Made by a program: the position numbers and the translations under genes
IMG/VR virus record: IMGVR_UViG_3300028833_000001
Span: 191,171-255,170 of that record
Direction: 5' to 3' (one strand)
Length of the DNA stretch: 64,000 nucleotides
Origin: a virus
Taxonomy: Duplodnaviria > Heunggongvirae > Uroviricota > Caudoviricetes
Shown here: positions 2,305-52,754 of the stretch, one piece after another
Layout of the letters: every line of letters starts with the position of its first letter
Numbering within the stretch: position 1 is the stretch's first letter
Notes under the pieces: model-generated
Told to the model about the DNA's origin: nothing
The model's input: the letters and a program-made list of their open reading frames with translations, nothing else
Database searches by the model: none

Positions 2305-4023
2305 ATGAGCAATCATACTAAAAAAACAATAGCGCAAAAGGCATTACTTGAAATGGATAATATAACTGCCGCGCTAAAGGAAGAAAGCAAAAAATCGCTT
2401 AACACTCTTTTAAGTGAAGCTGTTAAGACTGCTTTACGAGAAGAATGTGAAGACGATGAAGATTGCGATTATGAAGTACTTGACGGTGACGAAGAAAGTC
2501 CTAAAGATACAAAGAAAAAAAAATCTAAAGAAGAAAAAGAATCTGGTGACGTTGATGAGGACGAAAACGATACCCAGATGCCACAAGATGGCGAAGCAAT
2601 GCAGGCTCAAGAACAACCAGAAAATGAACCTGGCGAAGAGGAACCTGGCGAAGAGGAACCTGGCGAAGAGGACCCAGCAAACAATATGCCAGCTGAAGAA
2701 CCGATGTACGGTGAAAATGCTGAACAGAATGGCCAACAAAATGGAGAAGAAGATGTATTTTCAAAGTATCAAGTAGGAGATAATACATATGACCTCACTG
2801 GTGAGAAAGACCAAGATGCAGTGGTAAAGGTGTATAAACTATTAAATAATGATGACAACATAGTTGTTAGACAGGATGGTGGCACTATCAAATTAATAGA
2901 TAATACAGCAGACACAGAATATGTTATTGATTTTGGTGATAACGACCAAGAACAATATAGTGAGGAACCGACACAAGATGATACTCAATTAAATGAAGAT
3001 GAAGATTTTTCAGGAATCGCTGGTTTTCCAGACGATGACGAAATCAATGACTCTGACTATGAACCAGAATCTGACGAGCTTTATCAAGATTTCGATTGGC
3101 ACAATGATGAAAACTTCGATGATGAAGATTTTGATGGCAATTATGGTAATAATGATGATGATTTCGATTTAGATTTGGGCTCAGATGACGATGAGTTTGA
3201 CGATTTTGATAATAACATTAATGAAAATAGAAAATCTAGAAAACCAATGAAGAAAAATAAAAACGAAGTATTATTTGAAATTGACCTTGGTTACACTGAC
3301 AATTACCAAGACAAAGACCCTATATCTGGTTTATCCAATAATGAACCAGCCAAAGGAAAAAAAGATTGGGATGCTGGTGTGCCTAAAGGGACTAAAAAAC
3401 CATTTGCTGGTGATTCAAAATCGAAAGGAACACCATTTGAGGATACTGTAAATGAAGAGGATGAAACAATGGATTCCACAGAAATGAGTGGAGATGTTGA
3501 AGAAGGTGGCGCTAACGTTGGAGGTGCTGTTCAACAAAGGAGTACTGCTAAGAGTAGAATTCCTAACAATAGAAAAGAACATGGCCCTTACAATAAAAGA
3601 CACGTTTCAACAGCCACTGATGGATATGAAGAAATTGTTTCTGAAATGAAGAAAATTAAAAAAGAAAACAAAGAACTTAAAGAATCTGTTAAATCTTTAC
3701 TTAAAAATTTGAATGAAGCTTATGTTACAAATCATAATTTAGGAAAAATTACAAAACTATTTGTTGAAAATGTAACAACACAAGAAGAAAAAGTTGACAT
3801 TGTAAACAGATTTGCTAGTGATGCTAAAACTGTGAAACAGTCAAATGCTTTATTTGAAACAATTCAAAGAGAACTTCAAAAGTCTCACTCAAACAGCGGT
3901 TTGAATTTGAATGAATCATCAATGACCGCAAAAGGTACAAAACAATTAAATGAAGTCCAACAATATGCATCAAAAGACCTTCTTAAAACAAAGGATTTGA
4001 TGAATAGGATTTTAGAATGGTAA
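2305..4023 (+). CDS. Prohead scaffolding/core protein (T4 gp22-like position and composition)
   Basis: Between protease and capsid gene. Very acidic low-complexity body, C-terminal coiled coil, many L/I/V-x-E sites (LSE, LNE x4, INE, VNE) of the T4 gp21 cleavage type. Confidence 0.8.
   Translation: MSNHTKKTIAQKALLEMDNITAALKEESKKSLNTLLSEAVKTALREECEDDEDCDYEVLDGDEESPKDTKKKKSKEEKESGDVDEDENDTQMPQDGEAMQAQEQPENEPGEEEPGEEEPGEEDPANNMPAEEPMYGENAEQNGQQNGEEDVFSKYQVGDNTYDLTGEKDQDAVVKVYKLLNNDDNIVVRQDGGTIKLIDNTADTEYVIDFGDNDQEQYSEEPTQDDTQLNEDEDFSGIAGFPDDDEINDSDYEPESDELYQDFDWHNDENFDDEDFDGNYGNNDDDFDLDLGSDDDEFDDFDNNINENRKSRKPMKKNKNEVLFEIDLGYTDNYQDKDPISGLSNNEPAKGKKDWDAGVPKGTKKPFAGDSKSKGTPFEDTVNEEDETMDSTEMSGDVEEGGANVGGAVQQRSTAKSRIPNNRKEHGPYNKRHVSTATDGYEEIVSEMKKIKKENKELKESVKSLLKNLNEAYVTNHNLGKITKLFVENVTTQEEKVDIVNRFASDAKTVKQSNALFETIQRELQKSHSNSGLNLNESSMTAKGTKQLNEVQQYASKDLLKTKDLMNRILEW
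2626..2670 (+). repeat. Tandem repeat, 3 x 15 bp GAACCTGGCGAAGAG (EPGEE)3
   Basis: Three perfect copies read directly, followed by a degenerate GACCCA. Confidence 0.95.
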
Positions 4024-4063
4024 AAAAAAAATAAAAATAAGGATATAAAAAGAAATTAATAAA

Positions 4064-5992
4064 ATGAGAGAATTTTTAAATTCAGGACTCGTTGGTAATA
4101 TCGAACTTAACGAGCAAAAAAGAATCAGAAAAGAGATTTCAAAACGCTGGGACGAATTTGGTCTGACCGAAGGTCTTAAAGGCGTTATGAAAGAGAATAT
4201 CTCAATGCTTTTCGAAAACGAAGCAAAGGTTCTTCTTTCCGAAGCTACCGATGCTAATAACAGCGGTTCTTTCGAAACTGTTGTTTTCCCAATTATTCGC
4301 CGTGTCTTCAGCAAACTTCTTGCTAATGACATCGTTTCAGTACAGGCTATGAACCTTCCTATCGGTAAGTTGTTCTTCATGATTCCTGTTACTTCTGAAA
4401 GAGAATGGAATCAAGCAACTGAAGGTGAACTAACCGATGGTGATACTGGTCGTCATAGAGGTCTTCAAGGTTATGAGAGAACAGACCGCAGAAATGGCAA
4501 TAAATGGAATCGTTTCTATTTGCCAGATGAAGCTGTTATGCCTATGGAATTTGAAGAATCAACAGATGGTGGTAAAACTTGGACTCCAATTGCTGATGCA
4601 ACAACTTATGATGAAGCTAGTAAAAAAGCAACAGCTGATGCAATTATCAGACAAAAAAGTCCAAGCGTAACAACTTATCATCAAAGGTCATTATACGATT
4701 TATTCTATAACGATTTCTTGTATGACAACTCAAAAGGTAAAATCAGAATCCGCGTTGCTGCTGATGGTGATATAACTCCTGTTGTCTTTGAAGATTACAA
4801 ATTAGTTGATGTTGATGCTAACCACAAAGTGAAATTGTATGCTGATGGTAGTGTTCGTAACGTTATTTTGAAAGTTGGTGGTTTCTCTGGCTTCAATGCT
4901 GGTAAACTTACTGGTCCTGATGGAAACGAAATGGATACTGAAGCTTTCTTGGCTTCTTTGAAGATTTACATGAAAAAAGACATCACTTCTGATGAATATT
5001 CATGCTTCGAAACAAATGAAGGTGTTCCTTTCAGAGTGGTAACCCAAAAATATGGTAAAGGTATTGTTGAATACAACTCAGCTTGTGATGCCGAAGGCTT
5101 CATCTATCTTGATGTTGATTTAGCAAAACCAACCAGAAAACAAGGCCAAACTCTTGATGGTTACATCGGAATTGAAGAACAAGATGATTACAAATCATTG
5201 TTCGGTGTTGCTTGGTGTCAATATGACTCATTAGAGCTTGAAACTGAAATTGGTGAAGTTTCTTTCAAACTTGACAGCGTTACTGTTTCCGTTGAAGAAA
5301 GAAAACTTCGTGCAACTTGGTCTCCTGAGCTTGCCCAAGACGTTTCTGCGTTCCATAACATTGATGCTGAAGCTGAATTGTCTGCTTTGTTAGCAGAACA
5401 AATTGCCGCTGAGATTGACCGTGAGATTTTGCGTGACCTTCGTAAATATGCTCCTTGGAAACTTCGTTGGGATGTTAACGGTTGGAGAAGACAAGCTGGT
5501 TTCTCAACCAACTACACTCAAAAAGATTGGAACCAAGAGTTAATCGTTAGAATTAACCAAATTTCAGCTCAAATCCACAAATCAACTCTTCGTGGTGGTG
5601 CAAACTTCATCGTTGTTTCTAGCGAAATTAGTGCTTTGTTTGACAACCTTGAATACTTCCACGTAAGTGATGCTTCTCCTGAGAGCGACCAATACAATAT
5701 GGGTATCGAAAGAGTCGGTGCTTTACAGAACCGTTACCAAGTATATCGTGACCCATATTCACCAGCTTGGTCTATAATCATCGGTCATAAGGGTAAATCT
5801 CTTCTTGACACTGGTTATATCTATGCTCCATATATTCCTATGCAGCTTACTCCGTTGATTTACAATCCTCACAACTTTGCACCTGTTAAGGGTATTATGA
5901 CCCGTTATGCAAAGAAATGTGTCAACAACCGTTTCTATGGAAGCGTGATTGTCGATGGTTTGCTTCAATGGGACCCTCAAGAATTGCGTTAG
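4064..5992 (+). CDS. Major capsid protein (T4 gp23-like) with large central insertion
   Basis: FPIIRRVF, DIVSVQAMNLPIG, VEERKLRATWSPELAQD, IDAEAEL, EIDREIL, YAPYIP, IMTRY. Probable maturation site LLSE|AT near residue 60. Confidence 0.95.
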   Translation: MREFLNSGLVGNIELNEQKRIRKEISKRWDEFGLTEGLKGVMKENISMLFENEAKVLLSEATDANNSGSFETVVFPIIRRVFSKLLANDIVSVQAMNLPIGKLFFMIPVTSEREWNQATEGELTDGDTGRHRGLQGYERTDRRNGNKWNRFYLPDEAVMPMEFEESTDGGKTWTPIADATTYDEASKKATADAIIRQKSPSVTTYHQRSLYDLFYNDFLYDNSKGKIRIRVAADGDITPVVFEDYKLVDVDANHKVKLYADGSVRNVILKVGGFSGFNAGKLTGPDGNEMDTEAFLASLKIYMKKDITSDEYSCFETNEGVPFRVVTQKYGKGIVEYNSACDAEGFIYLDVDLAKPTRKQGQTLDGYIGIEEQDDYKSLFGVAWCQYDSLELETEIGEVSFKLDSVTVSVEERKLRATWSPELAQDVSAFHNIDAEAELSALLAEQIAAEIDREILRDLRKYAPWKLRWDVNGWRRQAGFSTNYTQKDWNQELIVRINQISAQIHKSTLRGGANFIVVSSEISALFDNLEYFHVSDASPESDQYNMGIERVGALQNRYQVYRDPYSPAWSIIIGHKGKSLLDTGYIYAPYIPMQLTPLIYNPHNFAPVKGIMTRYAKKCVNNRFYGSVIVDGLLQWDPQELR

Positions 5993-6016
5993 TAAATAAC
6001 TGATTCTAAATAATTT

Positions 6017-6048
6017 AAAGGGACGTTAATTAAAACGTCCCTTTTTTT
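6017..6048 (+). terminator. Rho-independent terminator after the capsid gene
   Basis: AAAGGGACGTT-AATTAA-AACGTCCCTTT plus T run. Confidence 0.85.
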
Positions 6049-6159: not shown

Positions 6160-6188
6160 TTGTATTATAAATAAAGTAGTTGATTAAT

Positions 6189-8093
6189 ATGAAAATAACG
6201 TTAGAAGTAAGAGAAAAAATTAAAAATCTTTATGTTTCTGGGGTTGGTATTGTTAAAATATCTAAACAAATACACACATCACCAAAAAAAGTAAAAGAAG
6301 CTTTATCAGAATGTGGAATCGACATAAATTCTGAAGATAGGGAATTTGGTCCAAGAAAAATAAAACCAGCTGGGTATTGGGATACTAAGGAACATTGCGA
6401 AAACGCAGCTAAAGAATGCAGGAATAGGGGTGAGTTTTATAAAAAATATTCTATTGCCGCCAGAAATTCTAATATTAACGGGTGGATTGATGAGTTTTCA
6501 GAAAAATATTTTACTAGAGAACCGCTTTATCTATCATTGAAGGACAAAGTACATTGTGTTTATTCATATGAATTTAAAGAAACTAAATCAGTATATGTTG
6601 GGAGAACTGTTGATATTAAAAGACGTGATTATGCTCATAGGGTTGATACAAAAGACACTGTTTTTAAGTATTCACAAGCTGAAAACATAAAAATACCGCA
6701 AATTAAAATTATCATCGATGGTTTAGATGGCTATGAAAGTTTGAACGAAGAAGAAAAGTGGGTGATTGAATATCAAAGACTTGGTTGGAACATTTTGAAT
6801 AAAAGTAAAACTGGTATAAATAGCGGCTCTTTAGGTTCCTCCAATAAAAAATGGACTTATGAAACTTGCAAAGCAGCTGCTATGTTGTGTAAAAATAAAG
6901 AAGAATTTAAAAAAAATTACAGTAGAGCACATAATGTATCAAGAGAGTACGGATGGATTGATGAATTTTTTCCGTTTAGTTCTAAAAAAGAAAATGGTTA
7001 TTTTGATAATATAGATAATTGTAAAAAAGAAGCTGAAAAGTTTGTTTCTATAATGGATATAAGAAAAAATTATCCATTTTTGTACCATAAAATTTCTAAA
7101 AATAAATGGATTGAAGACATTAGGACTCATATAAATGAAGATTCTAAAAAAATACATTCAGAAAGAAAATTTTCTTTATTTTTCAATAAAGAAACTAATG
7201 TTGCTAAAAACAAATTAAATAAAAATGAACTTGATTTTTATAATGAAGTTAGTTGTATGTTTGACGATGCCATAATTGATGATTCGTCTGTTCCTGATAT
7301 GCGTTTAATTATTAGGTCTGATAAATGTAGTGGGGTTTTTGTTTTGGTTACAGTTAAAAAGTGTGGTAGTTATTCACAATCATTAAGTAATAGTTATAAT
7401 AAAGCTGTTTATGATTATTGTATTTCTCATGAATATAAACTTATTTTAGTTTATGATACTGAATATATTTCATCTAAAAATTTAATAATAGATAAACTAA
7501 AGTTTTATTTTAAAAAGAAAAATAATCTTAAAAAAATAAACGCAAGACAGTGTAAAATTGTTGAAATTTCAAAAGTGGTGGCTAAAGAATTTTTAAATAA
7601 AAACCATATTCAAGGATTTTCAAAATCAAGTGTATATATCGGTGCTTATATGTCGGATAATTTGTGTGGTGTAATGACGTTTAAACGTAACCCAATAAAC
7701 TCTGGTGAAGAGTGGGAATTAAATAGGTATGCAACAGATGTTGATACTGTGTGTAGGGGGTTGGGCGGAAAAATGCTAAATTATTTTGTACAAACTAAAA
7801 AACCAACAAATATCGTATCTTTTGCTGACAAAAGATTTTCTAGCCCAGAAAATAACCTTTATACTAAAATAGGTTTTAAGTTACATTCTGAAACAAATGC
7901 ATCATATAAGTATTTTAATGTGTTAGATAACACTGACACTTTGTTGTATCATAAAATATCTTTTAATAAAAAGAAATTAAATAAGACATATAACTTACCA
8001 CTAACAATGACAGAGACAGAAATGACTAAAGCTCTTGGCTATGACAGAATTTGGGATTGTGGGTTAATTAAATATGTTTGGACCGCAAAATAA
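6189..8093 (+). CDS. Free-standing homing endonuclease: GIY-YIG domain, three helical repeats and a Hef-like C-terminal region
   Basis: VYSY...VYVGRT...RRDYAH...EEKW...LNK (GIY-YIG). Repeats of the type W-x-x-E-x-C-x3-A...GWIDEF. C-terminal INARQC...FLNKNHIQG...WELNRY...SFADKRFS...YDRIWDCG. The track start 6180 is TTG; ATG 6189 preferred. Confidence 0.8.
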   Translation: MKITLEVREKIKNLYVSGVGIVKISKQIHTSPKKVKEALSECGIDINSEDREFGPRKIKPAGYWDTKEHCENAAKECRNRGEFYKKYSIAARNSNINGWIDEFSEKYFTREPLYLSLKDKVHCVYSYEFKETKSVYVGRTVDIKRRDYAHRVDTKDTVFKYSQAENIKIPQIKIIIDGLDGYESLNEEEKWVIEYQRLGWNILNKSKTGINSGSLGSSNKKWTYETCKAAAMLCKNKEEFKKNYSRAHNVSREYGWIDEFFPFSSKKENGYFDNIDNCKKEAEKFVSIMDIRKNYPFLYHKISKNKWIEDIRTHINEDSKKIHSERKFSLFFNKETNVAKNKLNKNELDFYNEVSCMFDDAIIDDSSVPDMRLIIRSDKCSGVFVLVTVKKCGSYSQSLSNSYNKAVYDYCISHEYKLILVYDTEYISSKNLIIDKLKFYFKKKNNLKKINARQCKIVEISKVVAKEFLNKNHIQGFSKSSVYIGAYMSDNLCGVMTFKRNPINSGEEWELNRYATDVDTVCRGLGGKMLNYFVQTKKPTNIVSFADKRFSSPENNLYTKIGFKLHSETNASYKYFNVLDNTDTLLYHKISFNKKKLNKTYNLPLTMTETEMTKALGYDRIWDCGLIKYVWTAK

Positions 8094-14949: not shown

Positions 14950-15675
14950 ATGACAAAAATTATATTAACTGAAGCTCAATTTAAACGTTTATTATCAGAA
15001 GAAGCTTATGTACAAGCTTTGTTTGAATCATTTAATGTTCCTATATCGTTTTCTAATTTGAAGCATAAAGTTAAAACTGCTGTTATTGCTGGCGTGGCAT
15101 TAACAACAATTTGTAGTGCAATAAATAAATTACACATGGACAACATAAAAAAGCAGGAATTAATTGAACTGGCAAAAATAGAGGCCGAACAACATAAACA
15201 AGACAGCATTTTTGACGTTAAAGTTGACGCTTGCAGACGATATATGGAATATGCGCTAAATAACCAAAATAAAACGTTAAAAGATACTAAATTAAAACCT
15301 GAAACGTTAGTTAGGTGTGCAATGAAGAATAATTTTGACTTACCGTTTTTAATGGCTGTTGCGCACCAGGAAAGTTGTTTTGGTACTGGGCCAAGGTCTC
15401 TTAGAACTAATAGCGTCTTTTCTGTTGGGTCATACGATGACGGTCGTAATATTTTTACTTATTCCGACCCTAATGAAAGTGTTGAAGATTATATTAAGCT
15501 TTTGAAAAAAGATTATCTTGTTAACGGTAAAACACTTGCTGATTTATTAAAACCAAACTCATTTGTAAATTTCGATGGAAAGCGATACGCCAAAGATAAA
15601 GACTACGAACAAAAAATTCTCAATATACGTAATAGAATTATAAAAAAGTATCCAGAATTAAATACAAATAGTTAA
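14950..15675 (+). CDS. Lysozyme-fold muralytic enzyme (glucosaminidase/SLT-like) with N-terminal head-type leader
   Basis: MAVAHQESCFG (catalytic Glu context), NSVFSVG, YAKDKDYEQKI. N-terminus MTKIILTEAQFKRLLSEE. Confidence 0.65.
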   Translation: MTKIILTEAQFKRLLSEEAYVQALFESFNVPISFSNLKHKVKTAVIAGVALTTICSAINKLHMDNIKKQELIELAKIEAEQHKQDSIFDVKVDACRRYMEYALNNQNKTLKDTKLKPETLVRCAMKNNFDLPFLMAVAHQESCFGTGPRSLRTNSVFSVGSYDDGRNIFTYSDPNESVEDYIKLLKKDYLVNGKTLADLLKPNSFVNFDGKRYAKDKDYEQKILNIRNRIIKKYPELNTNS

Positions 15676-27705: not shown

Positions 27706-27726
27706 TTTTTTTTTGTGACATATAGA

Positions 27727-27734
27727 TATTTATA
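27727..27734 (+). promoter_or_regulatory. Putative late promoter variant TATTTATA
   Basis: 30 nt before ATG 27757. Confidence 0.5.
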
Positions 27735-27756: not shown

Positions 27757-28636
27757 ATGAGTAAAATTAGACTTACTGAAGAAAAGTTAACTTCTTTAAT
27801 AGAAGAAAGCGTATATGAATTATTGAAAGAAGCTGAAACCGATGAAAGATTAGGACACTTTTTGGGAAACGCATTTCAATCAATGAAAAATAGGTGGAAT
27901 AGATTTAAGGGTGATATAGGTGCTGGAAGAAATTATGCAAGGTATCGTGATAGAGGAATGGATTCATATGACAAGTATGGTGATGAGGCTGGCAATATGA
28001 GAAATTTTGGTGGTAGGGAATATGGTGTTTATAGACGTAACCAAGCTGTCAGTAGAAACAGAAATGCTGCTAATAAATGGACAGATGAGTTTGGTAATGT
28101 AACAAATAGTAGGTTTAATAACAACAACACAGAACCACAAAATACAACAGCAAATAATACAAACACTCAACAGGGCAGAGAAACATCACAGCCTAATAAT
28201 ACAGACGGAAACGCTGTAAACAACACCAACTCCAAATCCAAATACTACTACTCAAAACACTACTGCACAAAATAATGCAACTACAAATACTGCATCACAA
28301 CCTAATAGTCAAAGAAATCAAGCAAAATATAATAATATTATGTCACAGCAAAATAAAATAAAGCAACAGATGCAACAAATTGCCAATTATTTAACTGACA
28401 AAAAAAATAATCATAATTTTAGACTGGTTAATGGAGAATGGGTTACCAATGGTACTGATGGCGGAATATATAAAGCGTCTGAATCTGGGTATAATGACAT
28501 TAGGACAAGAGCTATTCAATATAAGCAATTACAAGCTCAACTTAATAAATTAAGACAAAAAATATATACTGATAAAATTATTCAAGAATCTGTTGATAAA
28601 GTATTAAAACAATATACTAAAAAGAAAAGAAAATAA
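27757..28636 (+). CDS. Probable head-packaged protein split by a +1 frameshift near 28217-28230 (ORFs 27757..28275 and 28220..28636)
   Basis: The N/T/Q low-complexity tract continues in frame +1 from 28220 through ATG 28340. Head-type motifs sit at both ends of the joined product. Confidence 0.6.
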
Positions 28637-33431: not shown

Positions 33432-33563
33432 ATGAAAGTTACACAAGAACAACTAGAACAAATTGTTAAAGAAGCGACAAAAGATGCACTAAAAAAAATT
33501 ATTAAAGAAAATGTTGCTTTTAATAAAACAACACAGAAAAATAAAAATATAAACAAAAAATAA
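33432..33563 (+). CDS. 43-aa protein missed by the ORF track, consisting mostly of the recurrent head-type motif
   Basis: Translated by hand: MKVTQEQLEQIVKEATKDALKKIIKENVAFNKTTQKNKNINKK. Starts 14 nt after the previous stop and ends at the terminator. Confidence 0.7.
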   Translation: MKVTQEQLEQIVKEATKDALKKIIKENVAFNKTTQKNKNINKK

Positions 33564-40473: not shown

Positions 40474-40482
40474 ACTATTTAT
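40474..40482 (+). promoter_or_regulatory. Putative late promoter ACTATTTAT
   Basis: Core 28 nt before ATG 40503. Confidence 0.6.
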
Positions 40483-40502: not shown

Positions 40503-42590
40503 ATGAAAAATTATATATTTGAAATTGAAAATACTTCAAATGCTGATGAACATATTGATATTGTAGGCGGACCAGAAACTGACAAACTAGATACCGCTAT
40601 TCGTATAATTAAAAACACTTGGAGAAGTCCAGATGATTATTGGGTGGTTGAAATAAGAGCAAGAAAAAAAGACCATATGAAATACAATACCAAAACCATC
40701 AACATAAAGGGATGGGTTGGTAAAGGTGGTAATAAAGTAGGAATTGCGTACATTCACGGTAAAACAGTTGAAGAAGCCATAAATTCTTTACGCAATTTAA
40801 CCATTTCATTATTTGATTGGGCAGCAGATACTTTAATAGAAAACGGTTATAATATACAAAATAACGAGTTTTCAATAAAGGATAATAATATGGGTACTGT
40901 ATATAAATTATGTGATTTATTTTTTGCAAGAGCTTATTTCACTATAAACAAAAAGAGTTTCAATAAAACCAAAGAAATTTTCACAAAAAAAACTGGTAAC
41001 ACACATATTGATTTTATGGACCCAATGTTTTTAAGTTTTGCTTTGTATGGTAACGGGTATCCGTTATATGCCTACATTGATTGTGATATAGACCCAGAAT
41101 CAGAATCAAAATTCGGAAAAAAAGAAACTGGAATTAGTGAAATTAATAGATTCATTAATTATTTAGAAGAAAAAAACATAAGAATATATAAAGTCGAAAA
41201 TAGTCATAATGGTGTTCATATTTACACAAATGCTTATGAATTTTATAAAGTTTTCAAAAATCCAAAACAAGCTAGGGAAACATTAAATAAATTATTTGAC
41301 ATCACTTGTGATGTTGGTGAATTAAAGGGTAAAAGAAGATTTTCAAATAATAGAATTGGTGATGAATCAATACTTGAAAAAGGAGGACAAGCAGCAATGC
41401 TATTATATTCACCATGTGGAAATAGGCCGCAATCAAATGTGTTGATTAATAAAAGAGAAAATTACCCAACATTAAAAGGTATGAGAAGAAATATGAGGGC
41501 CGATGTTTATGATAAATTTAATAAAAACGATTATAATTTAGATTTAAACGAATCGGTTGTTAGACAATTGGTTAATGAATGTTTAAAAAAATTATTATCA
41601 GAGGCTGATATTAATATGAGGGACAGAATAGGGTCAAAAGGTCCTTTAACTATTAATGATTTATTGTCTCCAAATGAAATATTCCAGACAACATTGAAAT
41701 TAATAGAAGAATATAAAAAAAGTGGTAATAAATATAGTTATGAAGAATTTTTCGGCAACGACCCAGGATATTTAATTTGGAAAAATTATGTAAAATCAAT
41801 GACTGGTGTCGATGAAATGAAACCACTGACAACCAAGGCTGGAAGAGTTAAGAAAGGAGTAGATGGCAAACCAGTAATGGTTCCAAAACTAAAAAGCGTA
41901 AAGAAGGTCAAAGTTCGTGACGAAAACGGTAATGTTGTATTGGATAAAGATGGAAAACCAGTATTTGAAGAATACCCAAAAATTGCTATTGGATTTATGT
42001 TTTGGGTTGAAAATATGACAAAGCCTAAAAAAATTGATGAATTTGGGGGAATAGCGACAAAAATTTATGCTTATAAGTATAATGATAGTTATTTATTTGG
42101 GTATTACAATTTAGGTATGTTTATTGCAAATTCATTTTCTGGCGGTAAATCTGGAGTTAATCAATTAATTAGTTCAATTTGTGAGTATAATAATGTGGTG
42201 TTTGCTGTAACAATGGATTTAGCACACATGTTGATGAAATTAGGGTTATATACCGACGGAAAAATCCATACAACACAATTTGGCGGGCAAATAGTTAAAA
42301 AAATGACATTGTCAACAAATCCAGATTTAATAGGAATTAACGACGAATTTGAAGATAAAACACCTAATCAGGTTCAAAATATATTTAAAAATAAAAAATT
42401 AAAAAACTTTTTCTTAAAAAACCCAAAACTTTTAAATGATATTTTAAGCGATGAAGGTGTTCAAGAATATATTAATGAACACCCAGAAGATTGCGAAATG
42501 TTATTCACTCAAATAATTAAAAATATGTTCACAAGAAAAAATGACTATCGAAAAAAAAGCCAAAAAAATACCAATAACAAGAAACACTAA
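40503..42590 (+). CDS. Two-domain protein: AEP (primase-polymerase)-like N-domain, head-type linker, unknown C-domain
   Basis: YIDCDID and SHNGVHIY resemble AEP motifs I and II; linker LNESVVRQLVNECLKKLLSE at 41544-41603. Confidence 0.55.
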   Translation: MKNYIFEIENTSNADEHIDIVGGPETDKLDTAIRIIKNTWRSPDDYWVVEIRARKKDHMKYNTKTINIKGWVGKGGNKVGIAYIHGKTVEEAINSLRNLTISLFDWAADTLIENGYNIQNNEFSIKDNNMGTVYKLCDLFFARAYFTINKKSFNKTKEIFTKKTGNTHIDFMDPMFLSFALYGNGYPLYAYIDCDIDPESESKFGKKETGISEINRFINYLEEKNIRIYKVENSHNGVHIYTNAYEFYKVFKNPKQARETLNKLFDITCDVGELKGKRRFSNNRIGDESILEKGGQAAMLLYSPCGNRPQSNVLINKRENYPTLKGMRRNMRADVYDKFNKNDYNLDLNESVVRQLVNECLKKLLSEADINMRDRIGSKGPLTINDLLSPNEIFQTTLKLIEEYKKSGNKYSYEEFFGNDPGYLIWKNYVKSMTGVDEMKPLTTKAGRVKKGVDGKPVMVPKLKSVKKVKVRDENGNVVLDKDGKPVFEEYPKIAIGFMFWVENMTKPKKIDEFGGIATKIYAYKYNDSYLFGYYNLGMFIANSFSGGKSGVNQLISSICEYNNVVFAVTMDLAHMLMKLGLYTDGKIHTTQFGGQIVKKMTLSTNPDLIGINDEFEDKTPNQVQNIFKNKKLKNFFLKNPKLLNDILSDEGVQEYINEHPEDCEMLFTQIIKNMFTRKNDYRKKSQKNTNNKKH

Positions 42591-44274: not shown

Positions 44275-47127
44275 ATGATAAGTGATGCAAGAGGTGGTCA
44301 TGTTTCACCTGGTATTTACACAGAAGAAAAAGATGTTCTTTACTCAGTTAAAAGTCTCGGTATTACAAGTCTTGGTCTTGTTGGCGAAACATTGTACGGG
44401 CCAGCATTTGAAGATATCGAGGTAAAAGATTGGGGGGAATATGTTGACTATTTTGGTGGAACATCACCAGAGCTTTTTAAAGGTACTGGATTACCAAAAT
44501 ATGAATTGCCATATATAGCAAAAAGTTATCTTGAAGAATCAAAAAGACTTCATGTTGTTAAAGTGCTTGGGTTGTCTGGTTATAACGCAGGCGAAGCGTT
44601 TTTAATTAAACAAAACGATGTACCAATAGCAATTTTGAGGAGTAAGATGGTTTATTCATATAACGGCGCTGATTTATGTGCTCAAGGAGAGATAGATTCA
44701 TGTCAACAGGTTGTTACTAATGTTACTGTTGGTAAATATACTGGTGGTGAATATAATAGTGTTTGTGCAAATGTAGAAGGTAGCACAAGTGAGAGCGTCA
44801 ATGATAATATGAAATTCGGACTAACAGTTAATTGTACCGAAAATCTTGGGTTTAACACTGAGTATACCTACAATGTATCGTTGAATCCAAATGATAGCGA
44901 TTATATTTATAAGGTGTTAAGTAATAGGCCAGATACTGGAACAACTCCTATTTATATTGAGGCTATTTATGAAGGCCAATTTGATGCCTCTACAGAGATA
45001 ACAACTGGCGAATGCACAAAAATAGATAGCGGAGAAGTTCCAGTAACGTTTTACTATATTGTAACAAAAGCTGACGCTGATACCGAAGACGAAAACACTA
45101 CATACACATATACTCTTCGTAGGGTTAGTGCTAATGAACTTGGTCACAGGGTACTTATTGGAGGCTTAGACCCAGCTAATTATGACAGCGAAAACAACGG
45201 CCAAATTATTTTAACTGGTCAAACAAGCAGGCCGAATATGAACGGATACTATGAACTAAACGCAGTGATTACTATTAACGATGCATATTCTAATTTTAAA
45301 GAAATGTACAGACCAGCACAAACTCCTTGGATAGTATCTGATATTGTAGCAAATGAAGCTGACGGAACTAAAACAGCTACAATGAGAAAATTGTTTAAAT
45401 TCGTAACAATTTCAGACGGTGACGCTGCTAACTATCAGGTTAAAGTGTCCATCTCAAATATTAACATATTAAACGGAACATTTGATGTGTTGGTTAGAGA
45501 TTTTAATGACAATGATTCTAATCCAATCATTTTAGAAAAATTTAGTAGATGTAGTTTGGTTCAAGGTGATTCATCATTTATTGCGCATAAGATAGGAACA
45601 TCAGACGGTTTATATATTTCTAAGTCAAAATATATAGCAGTTAAACTTGCTGATGGTGAAGATTTTTCAGACTCAATACCAGCTGGTTTCTTAGGATATC
45701 CAATGCCAGACTATGGATGCGATGATAAACCACAACCTTTATATAATACAGTTTTTAATACTACAATTAAACCAAGAAGACAATATTTTGGGTTAACAAA
45801 TGAAACTATTGATATTGATTTATTAAGGTATAAAGGTAAATATTTTTATGATGACAATGGTGATTGCAATCCAGAAAAATTGACGAACGGTTTCCATATG
45901 GATTCAATTATTTCAATGGAAGGATATAATAATTCTGCAATCGTTGATGGTGTTTCTGGGTTTAATTTTACAACAGTTTCCAAAGATAAAGTTGGGAGTG
46001 AAGAAAAAATTCCTAGATTGATTAATGCCCCATCATATGTGTCGCAAACAATCTATAAGGATGTAACTGTTAGAAAGTTCACTTTGTACTTCTACGGAGG
46101 CTTTGATGGCTGGGATGTTAATAGAGAAAGTAGAACAAATACTGATGAATATAAGGCATCCAGATACGCAGTTAAAACATTGAGTGGAACTTCAAAAGTT
46201 TTTTCCAGTGTTGAAGATAATGGCTTAAACCAAATGTTAAATCTACCATCAACAGCAATCACAAGTGACTATTATGCATATCTTGCTGGCTATAGGATTT
46301 TTGCTAATCCTCAAGATATTGATATTAATGTGTTTGCAACTCCAGGTATTGATTGGTATAACAATACGTTGTTAGTTGAAGATGTGTTAGATATCATTGA
46401 AGATAGTGATGACGGAAGAGGCGGTGATGCATTATACGTTATCGACTCTCCAAGAGATTCTGATATAATGGATATAGCGCAAGATTTGTTAGATACAGAT
46501 TTAGACTCATCATATGCAGCAACGTTCTATCCTTGGGTGTTATATTATGACCAAACAAACAAGAGGTATATTGAATTACCTGTAACTAAAGATGTTGTAC
46601 GTAATTTAGCACAAACAGACAACACAGCATTTCCTTGGTTTGCACCAGCTGGCATGGAGCGTGGTAATGTAAATTGTGTTAAAGCGTCTTATAAAACAAC
46701 ACTTACAGACGAAGATATACTTTACAGCGGTAGAATTAATCCAGTTAAATCATTCTCTAAAGATGGCGTTAAAATTTGGGGAAATAAAACATTATACACC
46801 AAAGATAGCCCACTTAATAGAATTAACGTAAGAAGATTAATGATTAGAGTGAAAAAATTAGTTACAGATGCGGCAAAACATTTAATATTTGAACAATATG
46901 ACGATACACTTGAAAAACAATTCAGGGGATTAATCGAACCAATTTTGTCAAATGTTAAACAAAATAGAGGTATCTATGACTATAGAGTTGTTACTGAAGT
47001 TACTGAAGAAACAAGAGACCAACATATTTTACCAGCAAAAGTGTTAATTAAACCAACACCAGCGTTAGAATATATCTCAATCTCATTTGTGGTTTATCCA
47101 GAAAGCGTTTCTTTTGAAGAAAATTAA
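44275..47127 (+). CDS. Tail sheath protein (T4 gp18-like)
   Basis: SPGIYTEEKD, INVFATPGID, PWFAPAG..RG, LNRINVRRL, P..ALEYI. Confidence 0.95.
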   Translation: MISDARGGHVSPGIYTEEKDVLYSVKSLGITSLGLVGETLYGPAFEDIEVKDWGEYVDYFGGTSPELFKGTGLPKYELPYIAKSYLEESKRLHVVKVLGLSGYNAGEAFLIKQNDVPIAILRSKMVYSYNGADLCAQGEIDSCQQVVTNVTVGKYTGGEYNSVCANVEGSTSESVNDNMKFGLTVNCTENLGFNTEYTYNVSLNPNDSDYIYKVLSNRPDTGTTPIYIEAIYEGQFDASTEITTGECTKIDSGEVPVTFYYIVTKADADTEDENTTYTYTLRRVSANELGHRVLIGGLDPANYDSENNGQIILTGQTSRPNMNGYYELNAVITINDAYSNFKEMYRPAQTPWIVSDIVANEADGTKTATMRKLFKFVTISDGDAANYQVKVSISNINILNGTFDVLVRDFNDNDSNPIILEKFSRCSLVQGDSSFIAHKIGTSDGLYISKSKYIAVKLADGEDFSDSIPAGFLGYPMPDYGCDDKPQPLYNTVFNTTIKPRRQYFGLTNETIDIDLLRYKGKYFYDDNGDCNPEKLTNGFHMDSIISMEGYNNSAIVDGVSGFNFTTVSKDKVGSEEKIPRLINAPSYVSQTIYKDVTVRKFTLYFYGGFDGWDVNRESRTNTDEYKASRYAVKTLSGTSKVFSSVEDNGLNQMLNLPSTAITSDYYAYLAGYRIFANPQDIDINVFATPGIDWYNNTLLVEDVLDIIEDSDDGRGGDALYVIDSPRDSDIMDIAQDLLDTDLDSSYAATFYPWVLYYDQTNKRYIELPVTKDVVRNLAQTDNTAFPWFAPAGMERGNVNCVKASYKTTLTDEDILYSGRINPVKSFSKDGVKIWGNKTLYTKDSPLNRINVRRLMIRVKKLVTDAAKHLIFEQYDDTLEKQFRGLIEPILSNVKQNRGIYDYRVVTEVTEETRDQHILPAKVLIKPTPALEYISISFVVYPESVSFEEN

Positions 47128-49169: not shown

Positions 49170-51626
49170 ATGATGAAATTCAAAATAAACGAGTCTAAAA
49201 GGGATGATTTATTATTAAGATACATGGAGTTGCTTAATAATAATGGAATAAATGTTAATATTGGGCAAGTTAAAAGTAAATTATTAAATAAATTTGTTGT
49301 TGAAGGTAACTTTCATAATTTATCTCTTAGGTCAAATTATTATTTAGCTGGTGTAGCAAGATATTATTTTGATGGTTCATTGACAAAAAACAAAGATTTG
49401 TCATTATTAAAACCAGAAAGCTGGCAAGGTCAAGATATTCAGGATATATGGGATGATGTTACTTGTAAGAAATTGGATGCATTAATTAATGTGTTAAGAA
49501 ACGCATATATTGATACTATTGGTACGAATATGCTTGAGCCAGAAGATTTTGGTGAACTTCCTCTTAAAGATTTGCTAAAAAAATACAATAAAGAAATTAG
49601 AAAAGAACTTGGCGTTGTAACTAAGAAAAAAAGTACAGAGTCAGAAATAGATACAAATGAGAACGTAGGAAATGGATATACATTTGAGATAATGTATTCG
49701 CAGGCAGATTGCCAGAAATACGAAAGGCCTACTGCTCCTGGTTCGTGGTGCATTACATATGGACAGTGTCACTATGATGTGTATGTTAATAGGCTAAACA
49801 TACATTATGTGATTTTTAAACGAAATGGTTGGGAAAATATAGAGCGCCCAAAAAACCCTCTATCAGAACCTGGCTTCACTCCAGAAAAACCGCATGATGC
49901 TTATGGAAACTCATTGATAGCGATGTTACAAAGCAACACAAGTCCAGAACCAGTTTTTATAACGTCAAGGTGGAATCATGGATATGAAGTACGTTGTGAG
50001 GCCGACCATGCATATACAAAAAAAGAATTTCAGCAAATAACTGGAGTTACAGATGACGATTTGAAAAGGATTTATAATATTTGGAATGTTTTTAAAACCA
50101 AAAAAAAATCAAATTCTATTGATAAAAAGGAAGAAAATTTTATAAATAGGTCTTTAAAATATTTACAAATGAGAATAAATTCTGGAGAAAATCCAGGACA
50201 ATTATTCAATCATATGTCTCACATATTTGGTAATCAAAAAATGAACAAAGGTACGTTTATATGTAGCGCTAAATTAAGTGAGACTACTATGGCCGCAAAT
50301 GAAAGACTTGTTTATTTTATATTTGATAATGGTAAAATTATTTTTGATACTGCTTGTATTGATTCATCTTCTTTTACTACTATTAAAGATTTACTTGTTA
50401 TTATTAAAAAAAACGATAGCAAACATTTAATGTATTCTTTACAACATCATAAATTATTGTCTATTAATGGTACAAACGTGTTTAGAAGGATACCAGATTT
50501 CGATAAAACTGGATATAATGTAGGTATTTATTTTGAAGTAAAACAAGGTTATAACGATGTAGCTCTTTTTAATGGAAAAACTATGGAACCATTACAATTG
50601 CCAAATGGAGAATATTGGTTCAACAAAGTTAAGTGTAACACCGAATCACGTTATGAACGCGGAAATCAAATAACTTGTAATATTTACACACCTACAAAAT
50701 CGACATGTTTTACCATATATTATGATATATCGAGTAGTGAAACGTATTTTTATAATACTGAAACAAGAAATTTTTTTGAACCAAAGATGCCAAATGAGAT
50801 TAAGTTTATATCTTACGACTATGGCACACACTCTCAATATATTGAAACGTATCCAAGCGATGGGCTTGAACCATTTTTAGATAATACATATTATTCTCGT
50901 TTGTATGATGACATGAATGCATCTGTGATAGGTATCAGGTATGGAAAACGACGTGTTTATCAAACAGGAGCTAAAATTAATGTTTATTATGGCAACGAAT
51001 CGGCAGTGCAATATTTAGTAAATGGCAAACTATTGTATATAGATGGAGAATGTTGGTTTAAAAAATTAGAATTGAACGAAACTGGGTTTAATATATTATA
51101 TTTGTTAAACGGAAAAAAAATATTAATGAACCAAAATATAACAAAATATTTAAATGTTAAAGAGTTAGATAATAATTATGATTTTAATATAATTAGAGGA
51201 GTTATTGGGAAAGGTGGGTCTAATTTGTTTATGTTTACTGGCACTAAAAATAATAGTGAAAAATCGATGCTATATAATGTTGATTCAAATGAATTTTTAC
51301 TTTCTCCCAAGTCAGACAGTATACTTTTCAATGGTGTAAATTGTTATGTATCAAGATATGACCCAGAAGCAAAAAAGGTTAGAGGATTTGGCTTTAGATT
51401 TTCTAATAAGAGAGAGGTCCCAACGTCGTGGTGGAGTTTTGGGGATGTAGATGGAGATGGATTAATAATGTCGTTTGATGATTTAAACGTATTATGTGAG
51501 AAAAAAAGTGGTGAATGGACAAGCATAAGCAACGATAACAATACGATTCCATTAAATAGATTAGACGTTGAAAAAATGGTCAACGAATCATTAAAAAGAG
51601 TATTAAAAAGAATAATAAGCGCATAG
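49170..51626 (+). CDS. Large hypothetical protein, probably head-packaged
   Basis: 818 aa. INES at the N-terminus, VEKMVNESLKRVLKRI at the C-terminus, SWCIT and SRWNH motifs, repeated NGEYWF/DGECWF beta elements. Confidence 0.75.
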   Translation: MMKFKINESKRDDLLLRYMELLNNNGINVNIGQVKSKLLNKFVVEGNFHNLSLRSNYYLAGVARYYFDGSLTKNKDLSLLKPESWQGQDIQDIWDDVTCKKLDALINVLRNAYIDTIGTNMLEPEDFGELPLKDLLKKYNKEIRKELGVVTKKKSTESEIDTNENVGNGYTFEIMYSQADCQKYERPTAPGSWCITYGQCHYDVYVNRLNIHYVIFKRNGWENIERPKNPLSEPGFTPEKPHDAYGNSLIAMLQSNTSPEPVFITSRWNHGYEVRCEADHAYTKKEFQQITGVTDDDLKRIYNIWNVFKTKKKSNSIDKKEENFINRSLKYLQMRINSGENPGQLFNHMSHIFGNQKMNKGTFICSAKLSETTMAANERLVYFIFDNGKIIFDTACIDSSSFTTIKDLLVIIKKNDSKHLMYSLQHHKLLSINGTNVFRRIPDFDKTGYNVGIYFEVKQGYNDVALFNGKTMEPLQLPNGEYWFNKVKCNTESRYERGNQITCNIYTPTKSTCFTIYYDISSSETYFYNTETRNFFEPKMPNEIKFISYDYGTHSQYIETYPSDGLEPFLDNTYYSRLYDDMNASVIGIRYGKRRVYQTGAKINVYYGNESAVQYLVNGKLLYIDGECWFKKLELNETGFNILYLLNGKKILMNQNITKYLNVKELDNNYDFNIIRGVIGKGGSNLFMFTGTKNNSEKSMLYNVDSNEFLLSPKSDSILFNGVNCYVSRYDPEAKKVRGFGFRFSNKREVPTSWWSFGDVDGDGLIMSFDDLNVLCEKKSGEWTSISNDNNTIPLNRLDVEKMVNESLKRVLKRIISA

Positions 51627-51640
51627 GCGCTTATTTTTTT
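51614..51640 (+). terminator. Terminator overlapping the stop of 49170..51626
   Basis: AATAAGCGC-ATAG-GCGCTTATT plus T run. Confidence 0.75.
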
Positions 51641-51689
51641 AACCATATATATAGTTAAGAAAAACAATTTTAAAAGCCATTTTTAAAAT

Positions 51690-51722
51690 AAAAAAAAATC
51701 ACCGTCATTTCTGGCGGTGATT
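51690..51722 (-). terminator. Terminator after the tail tube gene
   Basis: Minus strand ATCACCGCCA-GAAA-TGACGGTGAT plus T run. Confidence 0.8.
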
Positions 51723-51746
51723 ATGTTTTTATACAGAAGCGAAAAA

Positions 51747-52235: not shown

Positions 52236-52303
52236 TATTATAAGTGTTATATTTAATTATTATTTTTATCGATAAAAAAATTACTTAAAACTTCATTTTT
52301 TTT

Positions 52304-52312
52304 ATAAATAGT
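52304..52312 (-). promoter_or_regulatory. Putative late promoter ACTATTTAT (tail tube)
   Basis: ATAAATAGT on the plus strand, about 70 nt upstream of the tube start. Confidence 0.55.
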
Positions 52313-52388
52313 TTTATTGTAATTTTTAGAAATAATGAAATTAAATAAAAAAAAAGCGCCAATAAATCGGCGCGTTTATTTTTTTTAA

Positions 52389-52754
52389 TTAAAAATTATT
52401 TGGCTTGTTAATTTCATTTTGTTTTTGGTTTTGTTGTTCTGGCTTCTTGTCGCATATTTGCCATATTTTTTTTAATAGTTGATATTGTTCATCATCTGGA
52501 TTATCTGAAAGTTGAGCCATACCCTTTAATGATTGTTTTCTAATATCATCAACGAATTTGGCGACATCCATAACTTCTGGTTCTGAAGGTTTTGATTGTT
52601 CCATATCATCTTCTGGTTCAGTTAAATCCATGTCATCATATTCATCATTTTCCATATCACCACCTTCAAATTGAATAGCTTCGTTAATAGTTTTTGGAAA
52701 CTTTTTGGCTATTCTTTGTATTTTTTGTAAATTAGACATTTCCTTCTTTTTCAT
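52389..52754 (-). CDS. Hypothetical acidic protein
   Basis: 121 aa with TINEA site; own late motif and a GCGCC/GGCGC hairpin near 52356-52375. Confidence 0.75.
   Translation of the reverse strand: MKKKEMSNLQKIQRIAKKFPKTINEAIQFEGGDMENDEYDDMDLTEPEDDMEQSKPSEPEVMDVAKFVDDIRKQSLKGMAQLSDNPDDEQYQLLKKIWQICDKKPEQQNQKQNEINKPNNF

Follow-up and report, generated by a model that had tools for sequence, protein, structure and literature searches.

A candidate capsid-targeting and cleavage tag shared by unrelated late proteins of a T4-related jumbo phage

In a T4-related jumbo phage (genome of 361 kb, AT-rich with 29-36% G+C), the same amphipathic helix of ~22 residues (22-27) with a heptad pattern recurs in about twenty late proteins that are otherwise unrelated. 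By analogy with the 10-residue leader of T4, its most likely role is to bring proteins into the capsid as it forms. All tests that were run agree with a tag of T4 type that serves capsid targeting and holds a protease site. The helix is probably a capsid-targeting and maturation-cleavage module, a functional relative of the T4 capsid targeting sequence (CTS), and as judged from the sequence we favour reading it as a longer variant of the CTS that would work at N-terminal, internal and C-terminal positions.

The original prediction had pointed to one motif recurring in proteins with nothing else in common, and the seven strong segments that it named are all present in the sequence, at nt 2398-2445, 14959-15003, 27766-27831, 28577-28612, 33438-33509, 41544-41603 and 51567-51614. 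A profile seeded with these segments, iterated and scanned over the 361-kb genome gave 21 matches at ≥14 bits, with the next best at ≤5.3 bits, i.e. a bimodal score distribution, against a mean of 0.07 matches at ≥8 bits (maximum 10.5 bits) in shuffles and two matches in reversed sequences. Likewise, regular expressions derived from the seeds matched 7-11 times, against 0.2-0.9 times in 200 residue shuffles. True instances number ~19 genome-wide, of which seven lie inside the window, i.e. the whole stretch of 64,000 nucleotides that was analysed (Table 1). In this genome the tag follows the pattern h-[TNS]-E-x-x-h-x-x-[ML]-[VIL]-x-E-[SCA]-h-[KR]-[KR]-h-L-x-E, with [ML]-[VIL]-x-E-[SCA]-h-[KR]-[KR]-h-L as its core; E14 is found in 89% and [SCA]15 in 84% of the instances, and the best-conserved Glu sits at the centre of the motif, not at its end. 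Five instances are internal and four C-terminal (9/19 not N-terminal), and the tag is more than a removable leader. Apart from two paralog pairs the carriers are unrelated beyond the tag. The tag-coding DNA is no repeat; its nucleotide identity (0.443) equals the value that the peptides and codon usage predict (0.435 ± 0.007). A profile built from other genomes alone recovers the protein encoded at 14950 (17.3 bits) and four carriers outside the window.

Two of the original assignments needed revision. The segment IIQESVDKVLKQ, placed in the C-terminal half of the 27757 protein, is encoded at nt 28577-28612, at the C-terminus of the separate 98-residue reading frame 28340-28636 in another frame. 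The weaker copies proposed in 31055, 32022, 32866 and 52389 score <2 bits and find no support, except that the one in 31055 is plausible as a short half-leader (IILTQHQLDE). Two of the 21 matches are false positives by homology: a segment in the sheath C-domain (aa 853-874, within Pfam Phage_sheath_1C at aa 842-939), which surfaced only upon profile iteration, and a 67-residue copy of it elsewhere in the genome. A third match, in a RuvC-like protein encoded outside the window, probably reflects no more than an ordinary internal helix.

Table 1. Head genes, late-type promoter motifs and tagged genes in the window
Feature	Position (nt)	Strand	Evidence
Prohead maturation protease (Peptidase_S77, T4 gp21 type)	368..2188	+	Pfam PF03420 E=2e-19
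CTATTTAT copy, structural-gene (late-type) promoter motif	2266..2273	+	
Acidic scaffold-like core protein, gp22 position	2305..4023	+	flanked by the protease and capsid genes
Major capsid protein (gp23 family)	4064..5992	+	Pfam Gp23 E=2e-71
Further pre-gene CTATTTAT copies	10459, 14010, 16630, 30657, 40475, 44234, 47194, 49144, 55949	+	
Glucosaminidase, N-terminal tag aa 4-24 (nt 14959-15021)	14950..15675	+	HMM 14.4-17.6 bits
172-aa basic orphan, N-terminal tag aa 4-27 (nt 27766-27837)	27757..28275	+	HMM 21.8-23.2 bits
98-aa basic protein, C-terminal tag aa 71-92 (nt 28550-28615)	28340..28636	+	HMM 19.5 bits
43-aa protein, tag aa 1-24 (nt 33438-33509)	33432..33563	+	HMM 23.5-26.6 bits
695-aa two-part protein, internal tag aa 348-368 (nt 41544-41606)	40503..42590	+	HMM 20.3-21.6 bits
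Tail sheath, not in tag system	44275..47127	+	Pfam Phage_sheath_1C
818-aa orphan, C-terminal tag aa 793-815 (nt 51546-51614)	49170..51626	+	HMM 22.6-23.8 bits

The head genes accompanying this system are of T4 type. Pfam searches, with PF03420 also searched across the genome, identify an S77 prohead protease and a gp23-type capsid protein, with an acidic scaffold-like protein between them as in the T4 order, and a portal of T4 type is likewise encoded in the genome; an intein containing a LAGLIDADG domain splits the protease gene (Pfam Intein_splicing, LAGLIDADG_3). The scaffold-like protein has 572 residues, 25.5% of them Asp+Glu, and a long, acidic, disordered middle part. As searches of Pfam and PHROG gave no match to it, we infer its scaffold identity from position and composition. 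At aa 27-48 (nt 2383-2448) it bears a tag-like N-terminal helix (HMM 14.6 bits), which is present clade-wide, in all relatives. When the tag profile, with the scaffold rows removed, was compared with an alignment of 66 scaffolds (hhalign), the two matched at aa 28-46 with P=0.0022, against ≥0.022 for controls. The tag core also matches the predicted maturation site of the capsid protein, L-L-S-E60/A61 (slashes after Glu mark known or predicted scissile bonds; E60 codon at nt 4241-4243). This assignment is made from the alignment of capsid residues 73-108 to residues 29-64 of mature T4 gp23, L-[LI]-x-E60/[AS] lying 12 residues upstream of the block that aligns to mature residue 29; L57, [LI]58, E60 and [AS]61 are invariant among 79 relatives. 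Cleavage-type motifs occur three times in the mature parts of the carriers against 5.5 expected, a depletion that is not significant (p=0.2).

Recognisable enzyme domains were found in only three carriers, a glucosaminidase, an InPase pyrophosphatase and an AEP-like protein. The first (14950) consists of the leader, a hydrophobic stretch and a muramidase-type domain (Pfam Glucosaminidase E=4e-8). The protein encoded at 40503 joins an N-terminal half resembling AEP primase-polymerases, for which an ESM Atlas feature similarity of 0.93 to AEP/primase clusters is a lead only, to an orphan C-terminal half, and has a partial homolog in only one of 17 related genomes. The 49170 protein shares its C-terminal tag with a paralog elsewhere in the genome; a third paralog lacks it. 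Among the small carriers, the 27757 protein has a pI of 9.9 without the tag and its 98-residue neighbour a pI of 10.2, and the 33432 protein is the tag plus a basic Lys/Asn-rich tail; tag-only proteins of 36-48 residues occur in other metagenomes. Overall, 10/19 carriers have a pI ≥9 without the tag, compared with a proteome median of 5.3, and the carriers are more basic than the remaining proteome (Mann-Whitney p=1e-4).

The late motif reported alongside the tag was confirmed: the window has 21 copies of CTATTTAT where 7.2 would be expected, usually 22-58 nt upstream of structural-gene start codons. It precedes scaffold/capsid, portal-region, sheath and tape-measure genes; the DNA polymerase and glycosyltransferase blocks lack it. 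The proposed co-occurrence with tagged genes was also found, [CA]TATTTAT lying ≤70 nt upstream of 11/18 tagged genes vs 35/370 others (p=3e-7), and with operons counted the exact CTATTTAT serves 15/19 vs 59/369 (p=9e-9). The copies at 40475 and 49144 directly precede 40503 and 49170, 14950 belongs to the operon behind 14010, and 33432 is the last gene of the operon starting behind 30657; upstream of 27757 stands the variant GATATTTAT, which relatives use. In relatives the link between tag and late motif is weak (20/38 vs 330/969, p=0.02), because those loci are all structural regions. It should be added that any virion or lysis protein, and not head cargo alone, would be expected to have a late promoter.

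Beyond this genome, the tag, with the clade consensus (MNKKL)-IRLTESDLHRIVKESVxRILKE, is present in 9,153 metagenomic protein clusters (E ≤0.001, among 1.84 billion proteins), and near-identical copies of it sit on different proteins. It was found in no GenBank phage, and there is no cultured relative. Across 120 metagenomic carriers E5 is conserved in 100%, E14 in 92% and E22 in 97%; conservation ends directly after I-L-K-E, with A, S or G at position 23 in 60%. Complete relatives hold 9-22 tags each. An S77 protease is encoded in 6/7 near-complete tag-bearing records, and in the seventh the capsid gene region is broken. Among the relatives, 11/75 tags lie ≤3 kb from the protease gene vs 1.3 expected, a clustering inflated by tandem arrays of tagged genes. 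In combination, the order of the head genes, the match to the predicted capsid cleavage site, the scaffold helix, the promoter, the basicity and this clustering fit the T4-type tag that had been proposed.

On the mechanism suggested by these data, the tag mimics the helix at the N-terminus of the scaffold-like core protein and, late in infection, would co-assemble with the prohead scaffolding core, so that any fused passenger would end up inside the capsid shell. The S77 protease would then cut after Glu at h-h-x-E/small sites within the helix, up to three per helix with the central one best conserved, and cleavage would break the docking helix and free the passenger within the head. Because the scissile bond would lie inside the docking element itself, the module could work N-terminally, between domains or C-terminally; with the best-conserved Glu in the centre, half the helix would stay on the passenger. 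Passengers would remain with the DNA after cleavage, and some would probably be ejected into the host, among them the three enzymes named above and the small basic proteins. Those carriers that are small and acidic may serve as expendable filler of the core, comparable to T4 gp67/gp68. The sequence data themselves establish the motif, how significant and widespread it is, the agreement with the predicted capsid-protein site and the scaffold helix, and the association with the late motif; we infer docking, cleavage, packaging and ejection of the tagged proteins. Of the cargo of enzymes and effectors originally envisaged, only the three enzyme-bearing carriers have a recognisable enzyme domain, and many carriers in relatives are small and acidic, and appear nearer to the T4 core proteins gp67/gp68 than to injected enzymes.

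These small carriers, many with Asp/Glu/Tyr/Asn-rich tails or with 2-4 tags ~90-135 residues apart, also bear on a different fate, in which the helix helps to build the prohead core itself and its bearers are auxiliary scaffold or core proteins, digested and expelled and not delivered. The helix on the scaffold-like protein, the tagged genes adjoining the protease gene and the layout of T4 gp67 (an N-terminal helix with L-I-E sites, then a poly-acidic tail) are consistent with such a role. However, carriers in this genome include folded enzymes and proteins of 500-800 residues, and 10/19 are basic, not acidic; this fate is considered unlikely. It overlaps with targeting and cleavage, since both need core docking and protease cutting, and differs only in what becomes of the passenger.

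A comparably low probability is given to a helix that docks its carriers on another late structure (tail lumen, baseplate, neck, chaperone or membrane site), the head protease having no role and Glu only shaping an amphipathic coiled coil. Late expression would suit any virion or lysis component, 40503 lies directly upstream of the neck and sheath genes and 49170 adjoins the tube gene, the hydrophobic stretch of 14950 could make it a signal-anchored endolysin, and internal and C-terminal positions are unusual for T4-type leaders. Against this, the invariant tag positions read h-h-x-E followed by a small residue, exactly as at the capsid site, the helix is borne by a scaffold-like head protein, tags cluster near the head protease gene, and none of the recognised tail or baseplate proteins here is tagged, the sheath match being false.

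Much less probable is a pro-sequence that holds late enzymes inactive until cut, with targeting secondary. The cut-site logic would be identical, and for the propeptides at both ends of T4 Alt the role (targeting, tethering or activity control) has been called open (PMC5694885). Yet there is nothing to regulate in a 43-residue protein that is nearly all tag or in orphans without an enzyme domain, and AlphaFold models the InPase leader as a separate helix of low confidence that is not packed against the domain. Finally, chance amphipathic helices of a Lys/Glu/Ile/Leu-rich proteome in an AT-rich genome, to which the four weak copies do belong, are refuted for the strong copies by the shuffled and reversed controls, the bimodal scores and the metagenomic clusters with near-identical tags on different proteins, and are exceedingly improbable as a general account.

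The preferred reading, a targeting and cleavage module, has its closest counterpart in T4, where propeptides of 10-19 residues, among them the CTS of IPI, IPII and IPIII and the Alt propeptides (Mullaney and Black 1996, via PMC9026906, PMC5694885), direct proteins to the core and are cleaved off by gp21 (PMC9026906, PMC5694885). In both phages a short peptide holding a hydrophobic-x-Glu/small-residue site is common to otherwise unrelated, hypervariable, mostly basic late proteins, alongside an S77 protease, a scaffold in the gp22 position and a gp23 capsid protein. The scaffold N-terminus resembles the leader in both, T4 gp22 starting MLKEQLIAE/A, similar to the IPII/IPIII leader MKTYQEFIAE/A, and C-terminal propeptides exist in T4 too, Alt being processed at both ends (ITE-6, LTE-619; PMC9026906, PMC5694885). 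In contrast, the tag is longer (22-27 residues), lacks similarity to MKTYQEFIAE beyond h-x-E, holds up to three Glu sites with the central one best conserved, and is used internally and C-terminally; at least ~19 carriers stand against three internal proteins plus Alt among the processed head proteins of T4, and the carriers reach 818 residues and include recognisable enzymes, with a function that is predicted here.

The T4 core proteins gp22, gp67 and gp68 are likewise acidic with N-terminal L/I-x-E sites, and form a core that the protease later fragments, a layout matched by the 572-residue protein and by many small acidic bearers in relatives. No homology to them was detected, however, and the protein described here is twice as long as gp22 and has the long disordered acidic middle. 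In phiKZ, 201phi2-1 and SPN3US, whose head and ejection propeptides were described by Thomas, Black and co-workers (PMC5694885, PMC9026906), many head proteins are similarly processed after Glu by a gp21-related protease, giant-phage propeptides hold several cleavage sites and are thought to be CTS-like, and some ejection proteins contain hydrophobic helices. Those phages are without a recognised gp22-type scaffold, and their propeptides are long, with an S/A/G-x-E motif; the tag described here has hydrophobic-x-E and is, unlike them, one shared portable sequence.

Gene calling over the whole genome gave 388 genes, and the reality of the peptide tag was tested in three ways. Regular expressions derived from the seed segments matched 7-11 times, compared with 0.2-0.9 in shuffles, and an iterated seed HMM returned 21 matches of at least 14 bits from the genome proteome and then none above 5.3 bits (shuffled proteomes gave a mean of 0.07 matches at 8 bits or more). 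Likewise, a half-tag profile built from other genomes only recovered the protein of the gene starting at 14950 together with four tag-bearing proteins (carriers) outside the window. Two of the 21 HMM matches, the C-terminal domain of the tail sheath protein and its 67-aa copy, were attributable to profile drift on iteration and were removed, and another match, which falls within a RuvC-like fold, probably represents an ordinary helix. The 67-aa ORF (locus L016, outside the window) copies the segment VRRL..KKLVT.AAKH.IFEQ found at residues 853-874 of the sheath, and has the appearance of a small paralog or a stray piece of the gene.

The seven strong segments of the original prediction are all present in the sequence where it had located them; one of these, IIQESVDKVLKQ, had been assigned to gene 27757 but is C-terminal in a different gene, of 98 aa, and the four weaker copies it had proposed (31055, 32022, 32866 and 52389) gave no scoring HMM match. 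A 107-aa protein, whose gene has no late motif upstream, has near its C-terminus an internal segment, FSLTESDVNDFLTEC, that scores 5-7 bits and may be a weak half-tag. With the tags masked, BLASTP detected only two paralog pairs among the approximately 19 carriers, so that the proposed absence of any other similarity holds for most of them and fails for these pairs. The tag-coding DNA is no more similar than the peptides and codon usage predict, and no DNA-level repeat was found. This indicates that selection acts on the peptide.

The invariant core of the tag in this genome is [ML]-[VIL]-x-E-[SCA]-h-[KR]-[KR]-h-L (h, hydrophobic residue), with Glu-14 present in 89% of the instances. Placement is N-terminal in 10/19 cases, internal in five, all at apparent domain boundaries, and C-terminal in four. 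Related phages have a far better defined tag, (MNKKL)-IRLTESDLHRIVKESVxRILKE, which almost always occupies residues 5-27 of a small protein, and conservation drops steeply directly after I-L-K-E. The Glu residues at positions 5, 14 and 22 are 92-100% conserved in the relatives, each followed by Ser or Ala/Ser/Gly, and the helix can thus be described as three h-h-x-Glu-small units in a heptad pattern.

The head machinery expected for a T4-type system of capsid targeting sequences (CTS) and gp21-cleaved propeptides is present in the genome, with an S77 protease, a gp23-type capsid protein (see table) and a T4-type portal (PF07230, E=4e-72); the window also encodes the large terminase, tail sheath and tail tube. 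The window covers bases 191171-255170 of an IMG/VR virus record that spans 361,445 bp at approximately 31% G+C. Megablast of 20 kb gave no match to a GenBank phage, and the best GenBank phage capsid protein reached ≤42% identity, while at least 597 capsid-gene relatives were found in IMG/VR.

Location of the features discussed (window coordinates unless prefixed; G000, this phage; G002, G003 and G014, related phages)
Feature	Position	Strand	Remarks
Prohead protease, Peptidase_S77	368-2188	+	PF03420 E=2e-19; interrupted by intein
Very acidic 572-aa protein	2305-4023	+	between protease and capsid genes
Capsid protein, gp23 family, 642 aa	4064-5992	+	PF07068 E=2e-71
CTATTTAT copy	6152		directly upstream of the 637-aa ORF
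637-aa ORF	6180-8093	+	between capsid and terminase genes
GATATTTAT copy	27726-27733		upstream of gene 27757
98-aa gene	28340-28636		IIQESVDKVLKQ C-terminal
Carrier 40503	40503-42590	+	
Tail sheath	44275-47127		
Orphan protein 49170	49170-51626		
Its paralogs	G000:C1:18800-21049; G000:C1:63987-66275		
107-aa protein	52843-53166	+	half-tag FSLTESDVNDFLTEC
67-aa ORF	G000:C1:121205-121408	-	copy of sheath segment
Multi-tag ORFs	G003:C1:249607-250161; G002:C1:152499-153053; G014:C1:152271-154253		2-4 full tags each

Within the protease gene, Pfam detects Peptidase_S77 in two pieces together with Intein_splicing and the homing-endonuclease domain LAGLIDADG_3; the same 609-aa intein-split arrangement occurs in two related genomes, and most relatives have an unbroken frame of approximately 240 aa. 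The Gp23 profile covers the capsid protein in two parts (residues ~70-130 and 390-627), which implies some 260 residues inserted relative to T4 gp23. The 637-aa ORF that follows was labelled a candidate GIY-YIG homing endonuclease on the first sequence reading; in the T4 record, segD follows gene 23 and so occupies the equivalent position.

The tag carries an h-x-Glu-then-small protease motif at E14/[SCA]15 and E22/[ASG]23 (slash, predicted cut position), and at the sequence level the same motif is found at the predicted capsid-protein site. Residues 73-108 of the capsid protein align to residues 29-64 of mature T4 gp23, and 12 residues upstream of this block all of 79 relatives keep L-[LI]-x-E60/[AS]-T, with position 59 free to vary. 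The L-[LI]-x-E60/[AS] segment is where maturation cleavage would be expected, and it is identical to the core of the tag. The mature parts of the carriers show no significant depletion of cleavage-type motifs. In the T4 record (NC_000866), IPII and IPIII start MKTYQEFIAE/A, IPI has ITE/A and gp23 has FLTE/A; gp22 starts MLKEQLIAE/A, showing that the N-terminus of the T4 scaffold also resembles a leader. Reviews describe the propeptides of T4, 10-19 residues long, as binding to the core and being taken off by gp21; T4 Alt is cut at both ends and has a C-terminal propeptide as well, and giant-phage propeptides contain several sites, so that small fragments can exit the head (PMC9026906, PMC5694885, PMC3012670).

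From its position and composition, we infer that the acidic 572-aa protein is the scaffold. Its long acidic middle is flanked by two conserved parts, a helix on the N-terminal side and a helical domain on the C-terminal side. When the tag profile was stripped of scaffold rows and then aligned to the scaffold alignment, it matched residues 28-46 over 19 columns (P=0.0022; reversed alignment P=0.022, 20 column shuffles P≥0.16). The scaffold of distant relatives reads T-K-E-I-L-R-S-V-A-K-E-E-I-D-G-V-V-K-E-S and, placed without gaps against the tag T-E-S-D-L-H-R-I-V-K-E-S-V-N-R-I-L-K-E-A, agrees at most hydrophobic and Lys-Glu positions. A co-evolution test, searching distant relatives within 10 kb of the capsid gene for cargo leaders modelled on the scaffold helix of the same phage, gave no matches.

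The window contains 21 copies of the late-type motif CTATTTAT, where 7.2 would be expected, and most of them stand 22-58 nt ahead of a start codon. The motif precedes the scaffold/capsid operon, the portal region, sheath, tube and tape measure, whereas the blocks of DNA polymerase and glycosyltransferase genes lack it. The exact motif stands directly upstream of 10/19 tagged genes and 30/369 others (p=2e-6), rising to 15/19 and 59/369 when operons are counted (p=9e-9), and with the relatives' variant allowed, [CA]TATTTAT, the counts are 11/18 and 35/370 (OR 15, p=3e-7). The anticipated co-occurrence of tag and late, promoter-like motif is thereby borne out, and tagged genes are enriched behind the late motif rather than the profile matching early or metabolic genes equally often. 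The presence of the motif before structural genes suggests that the carriers are expressed late, with the head genes. In the relatives the exact CTATTTAT is not enriched upstream of tagged genes; [CA]TATTTAT lies upstream of 20/38, against a high background in these structural loci. The motif varies between lineages, being mostly AACTATTTAT in this genome and mostly GATATTTAT in relatives (loci L020-L077), and gene 27757 has the relatives' variant.

Pfam and PHROGs identified only a glucosaminidase, an inorganic pyrophosphatase (InPase) and weak WG repeats among the carriers; apart from these two enzymes and 40503, the carriers are orphans. The glucosaminidase, 14950, has a hydrophobic stretch, and the InPase-family protein is encoded outside the window. 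The N-terminal half of 40503 resembles archaeo-eukaryotic primase (AEP) and LigD primase-polymerase domains in ESM Atlas features and structure (TM 0.37-0.47), which is no more than a lead; it would be unusual for a primase-polymerase to be made late and possibly carried in the virion. Sequence searches of the PDB with 40503 and 49170 returned nothing. The orphan protein 49170 is one of three paralogs of approximately 750-820 aa, possibly of WG-repeat/beta-propeller type according to an Atlas lead; two end in a tag, and the C-terminus of the third differs and is tagless. Carriers are hypervariable, with a partial match to 40503 in only 1/17 related genomes and no relatives of it by peptide patterns. 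Without the tag, 10/19 carriers have a pI of at least 9, compared with a proteome median of 5.3. The internal proteins of T4 are likewise basic.

The strict consensus tag was found at no fewer than 252 places in IMG/VR, whereas tblastn against GenBank phages gave no match. Complete relatives have 9-22 tags each. Of 75 tags, 11 are located no more than 3 kb from the protease gene against 1.3 expected, a figure inflated by tandem arrays, and an S77 protease is present in 6/7 near-complete tag-bearing records, the seventh having only a capsid-gene fragment. A word-indexed search yielded 1,709 clusters of 65-208 aa with the tag in common. For the scan of the full collection the broad alignment A1 was too variable, and the narrower alignment A2 was therefore used; among 1.84 billion cluster representatives HMMER returned 9,153 at E ≤0.001 and 1,367 at E ≤1e-10. 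The first tag is N-terminal in 122/149 of the best 150 database proteins. Tag-only proteins of 36-48 aa also exist, an indirect hint, and no more, that the peptide alone may suffice for head loading of foreign proteins. Neither Pfam nor PHROGs has a family for the tag, PHROGs gave nothing meaningful on bearers of the consensus tag, and no paper on it was found in the literature searched. Single ORFs with 2-4 full tags approximately 90-135 residues apart occur in three relatives (see table) and among database proteins (P0245, P0252, P0265). Their internal tags are often preceded by Met-Asn-Lys-Lys-Leu, and the ORFs appear polyprotein-like, in the manner of an in-frame fusion of several complete small tagged genes.

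In combination, these results make it rather likely that the tag is a module for capsid targeting and cleavage, an analogue of the T4 CTS. We infer as follows how tagged proteins would dock, be cut, be packaged and be ejected. The tag helix would imitate the scaffold's own N-terminal helix and thereby join the prohead core, and the S77 protease would cut it at internal h-h-x-E/small sites, freeing the passenger inside the head; some passengers, enzymes and small basic proteins, would then leave the head together with the DNA, and small acidic multi-tag proteins may constitute disposable core material, like T4 gp67/gp68. With the scissile bond placed within the docking element, it would be understandable that the module also works at C-termini and between domains. 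More tentatively, and as somewhat less likely than not, the tag may be a docking helix that mimics the N-terminal helix of the scaffold and is cut in its middle, able to load a passenger from either end or between two domains; in that case this clade of rumen and gut jumbo phages would deliver a pan-genomic set of thousands of protein families into host cells in-capsid.

The alternative that the tag is purely a core-building element is unlikely. Many of the best database matches contain 2-4 tags, with Asp/Glu/Tyr/Asn-rich stretches between them; glucosaminidase and pyrophosphatase stand among the carriers as well. Equally low probability is given to a handle for some other late assembly without proteolysis; the tag itself contains the predicted cleavage motif. 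A zymogen pro-sequence is very improbable. For the InPase, almost all of the closest 120 homologs keep a short leader, MKIILTESQLKxLxxE, and an AlphaFold model (mean pLDDT 87.8) is informative only in placing this leader as a separate helix of low confidence (pLDDT 68-70). Chance recurrence, set against the shuffled controls, can be practically discarded.

On this more tentative reading, the repertoire delivered in the capsid would comprise 9,153 or more clusters (50% identity), including multi-tag polyproteins, far beyond the internal proteins of T4, and the tag would offer a ready-made packaging handle independent of position. Confirmation of the targeting logic would mean that the tag defines the set of proteins with which uncultured gut and rumen jumbo phages enter the cell, likely factors of counter-defence and takeover that act in the first minute, and a large group of phage proteins now listed as "hypothetical" would be explained. 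It would also provide a testable rule, in which tag plus h-h-x-E/small site predicts virion cargo from sequence.

The T4 CTS is the classic case of a phage addressing proteins to the head for injection and, to our knowledge, experimental proof of its logic is confined to T-even phages and to a small number of small proteins. Sequence similarity between the CTS (MKTYQEFIAE) and the tag is confined to the h-x-E/A ending, so the tag is an analogue or a very distant relative rather than a CTS member by sequence. Apart from sequence, by analogy, it would appear to work like the CTS on the features tested, beginning with the occurrence of one short peptide on otherwise unrelated proteins. The tag is longer than the T4 CTS and is not tied to one position, and it is found on approximately 20 carriers per genome, compared with the few internal proteins that T4 is known to have.
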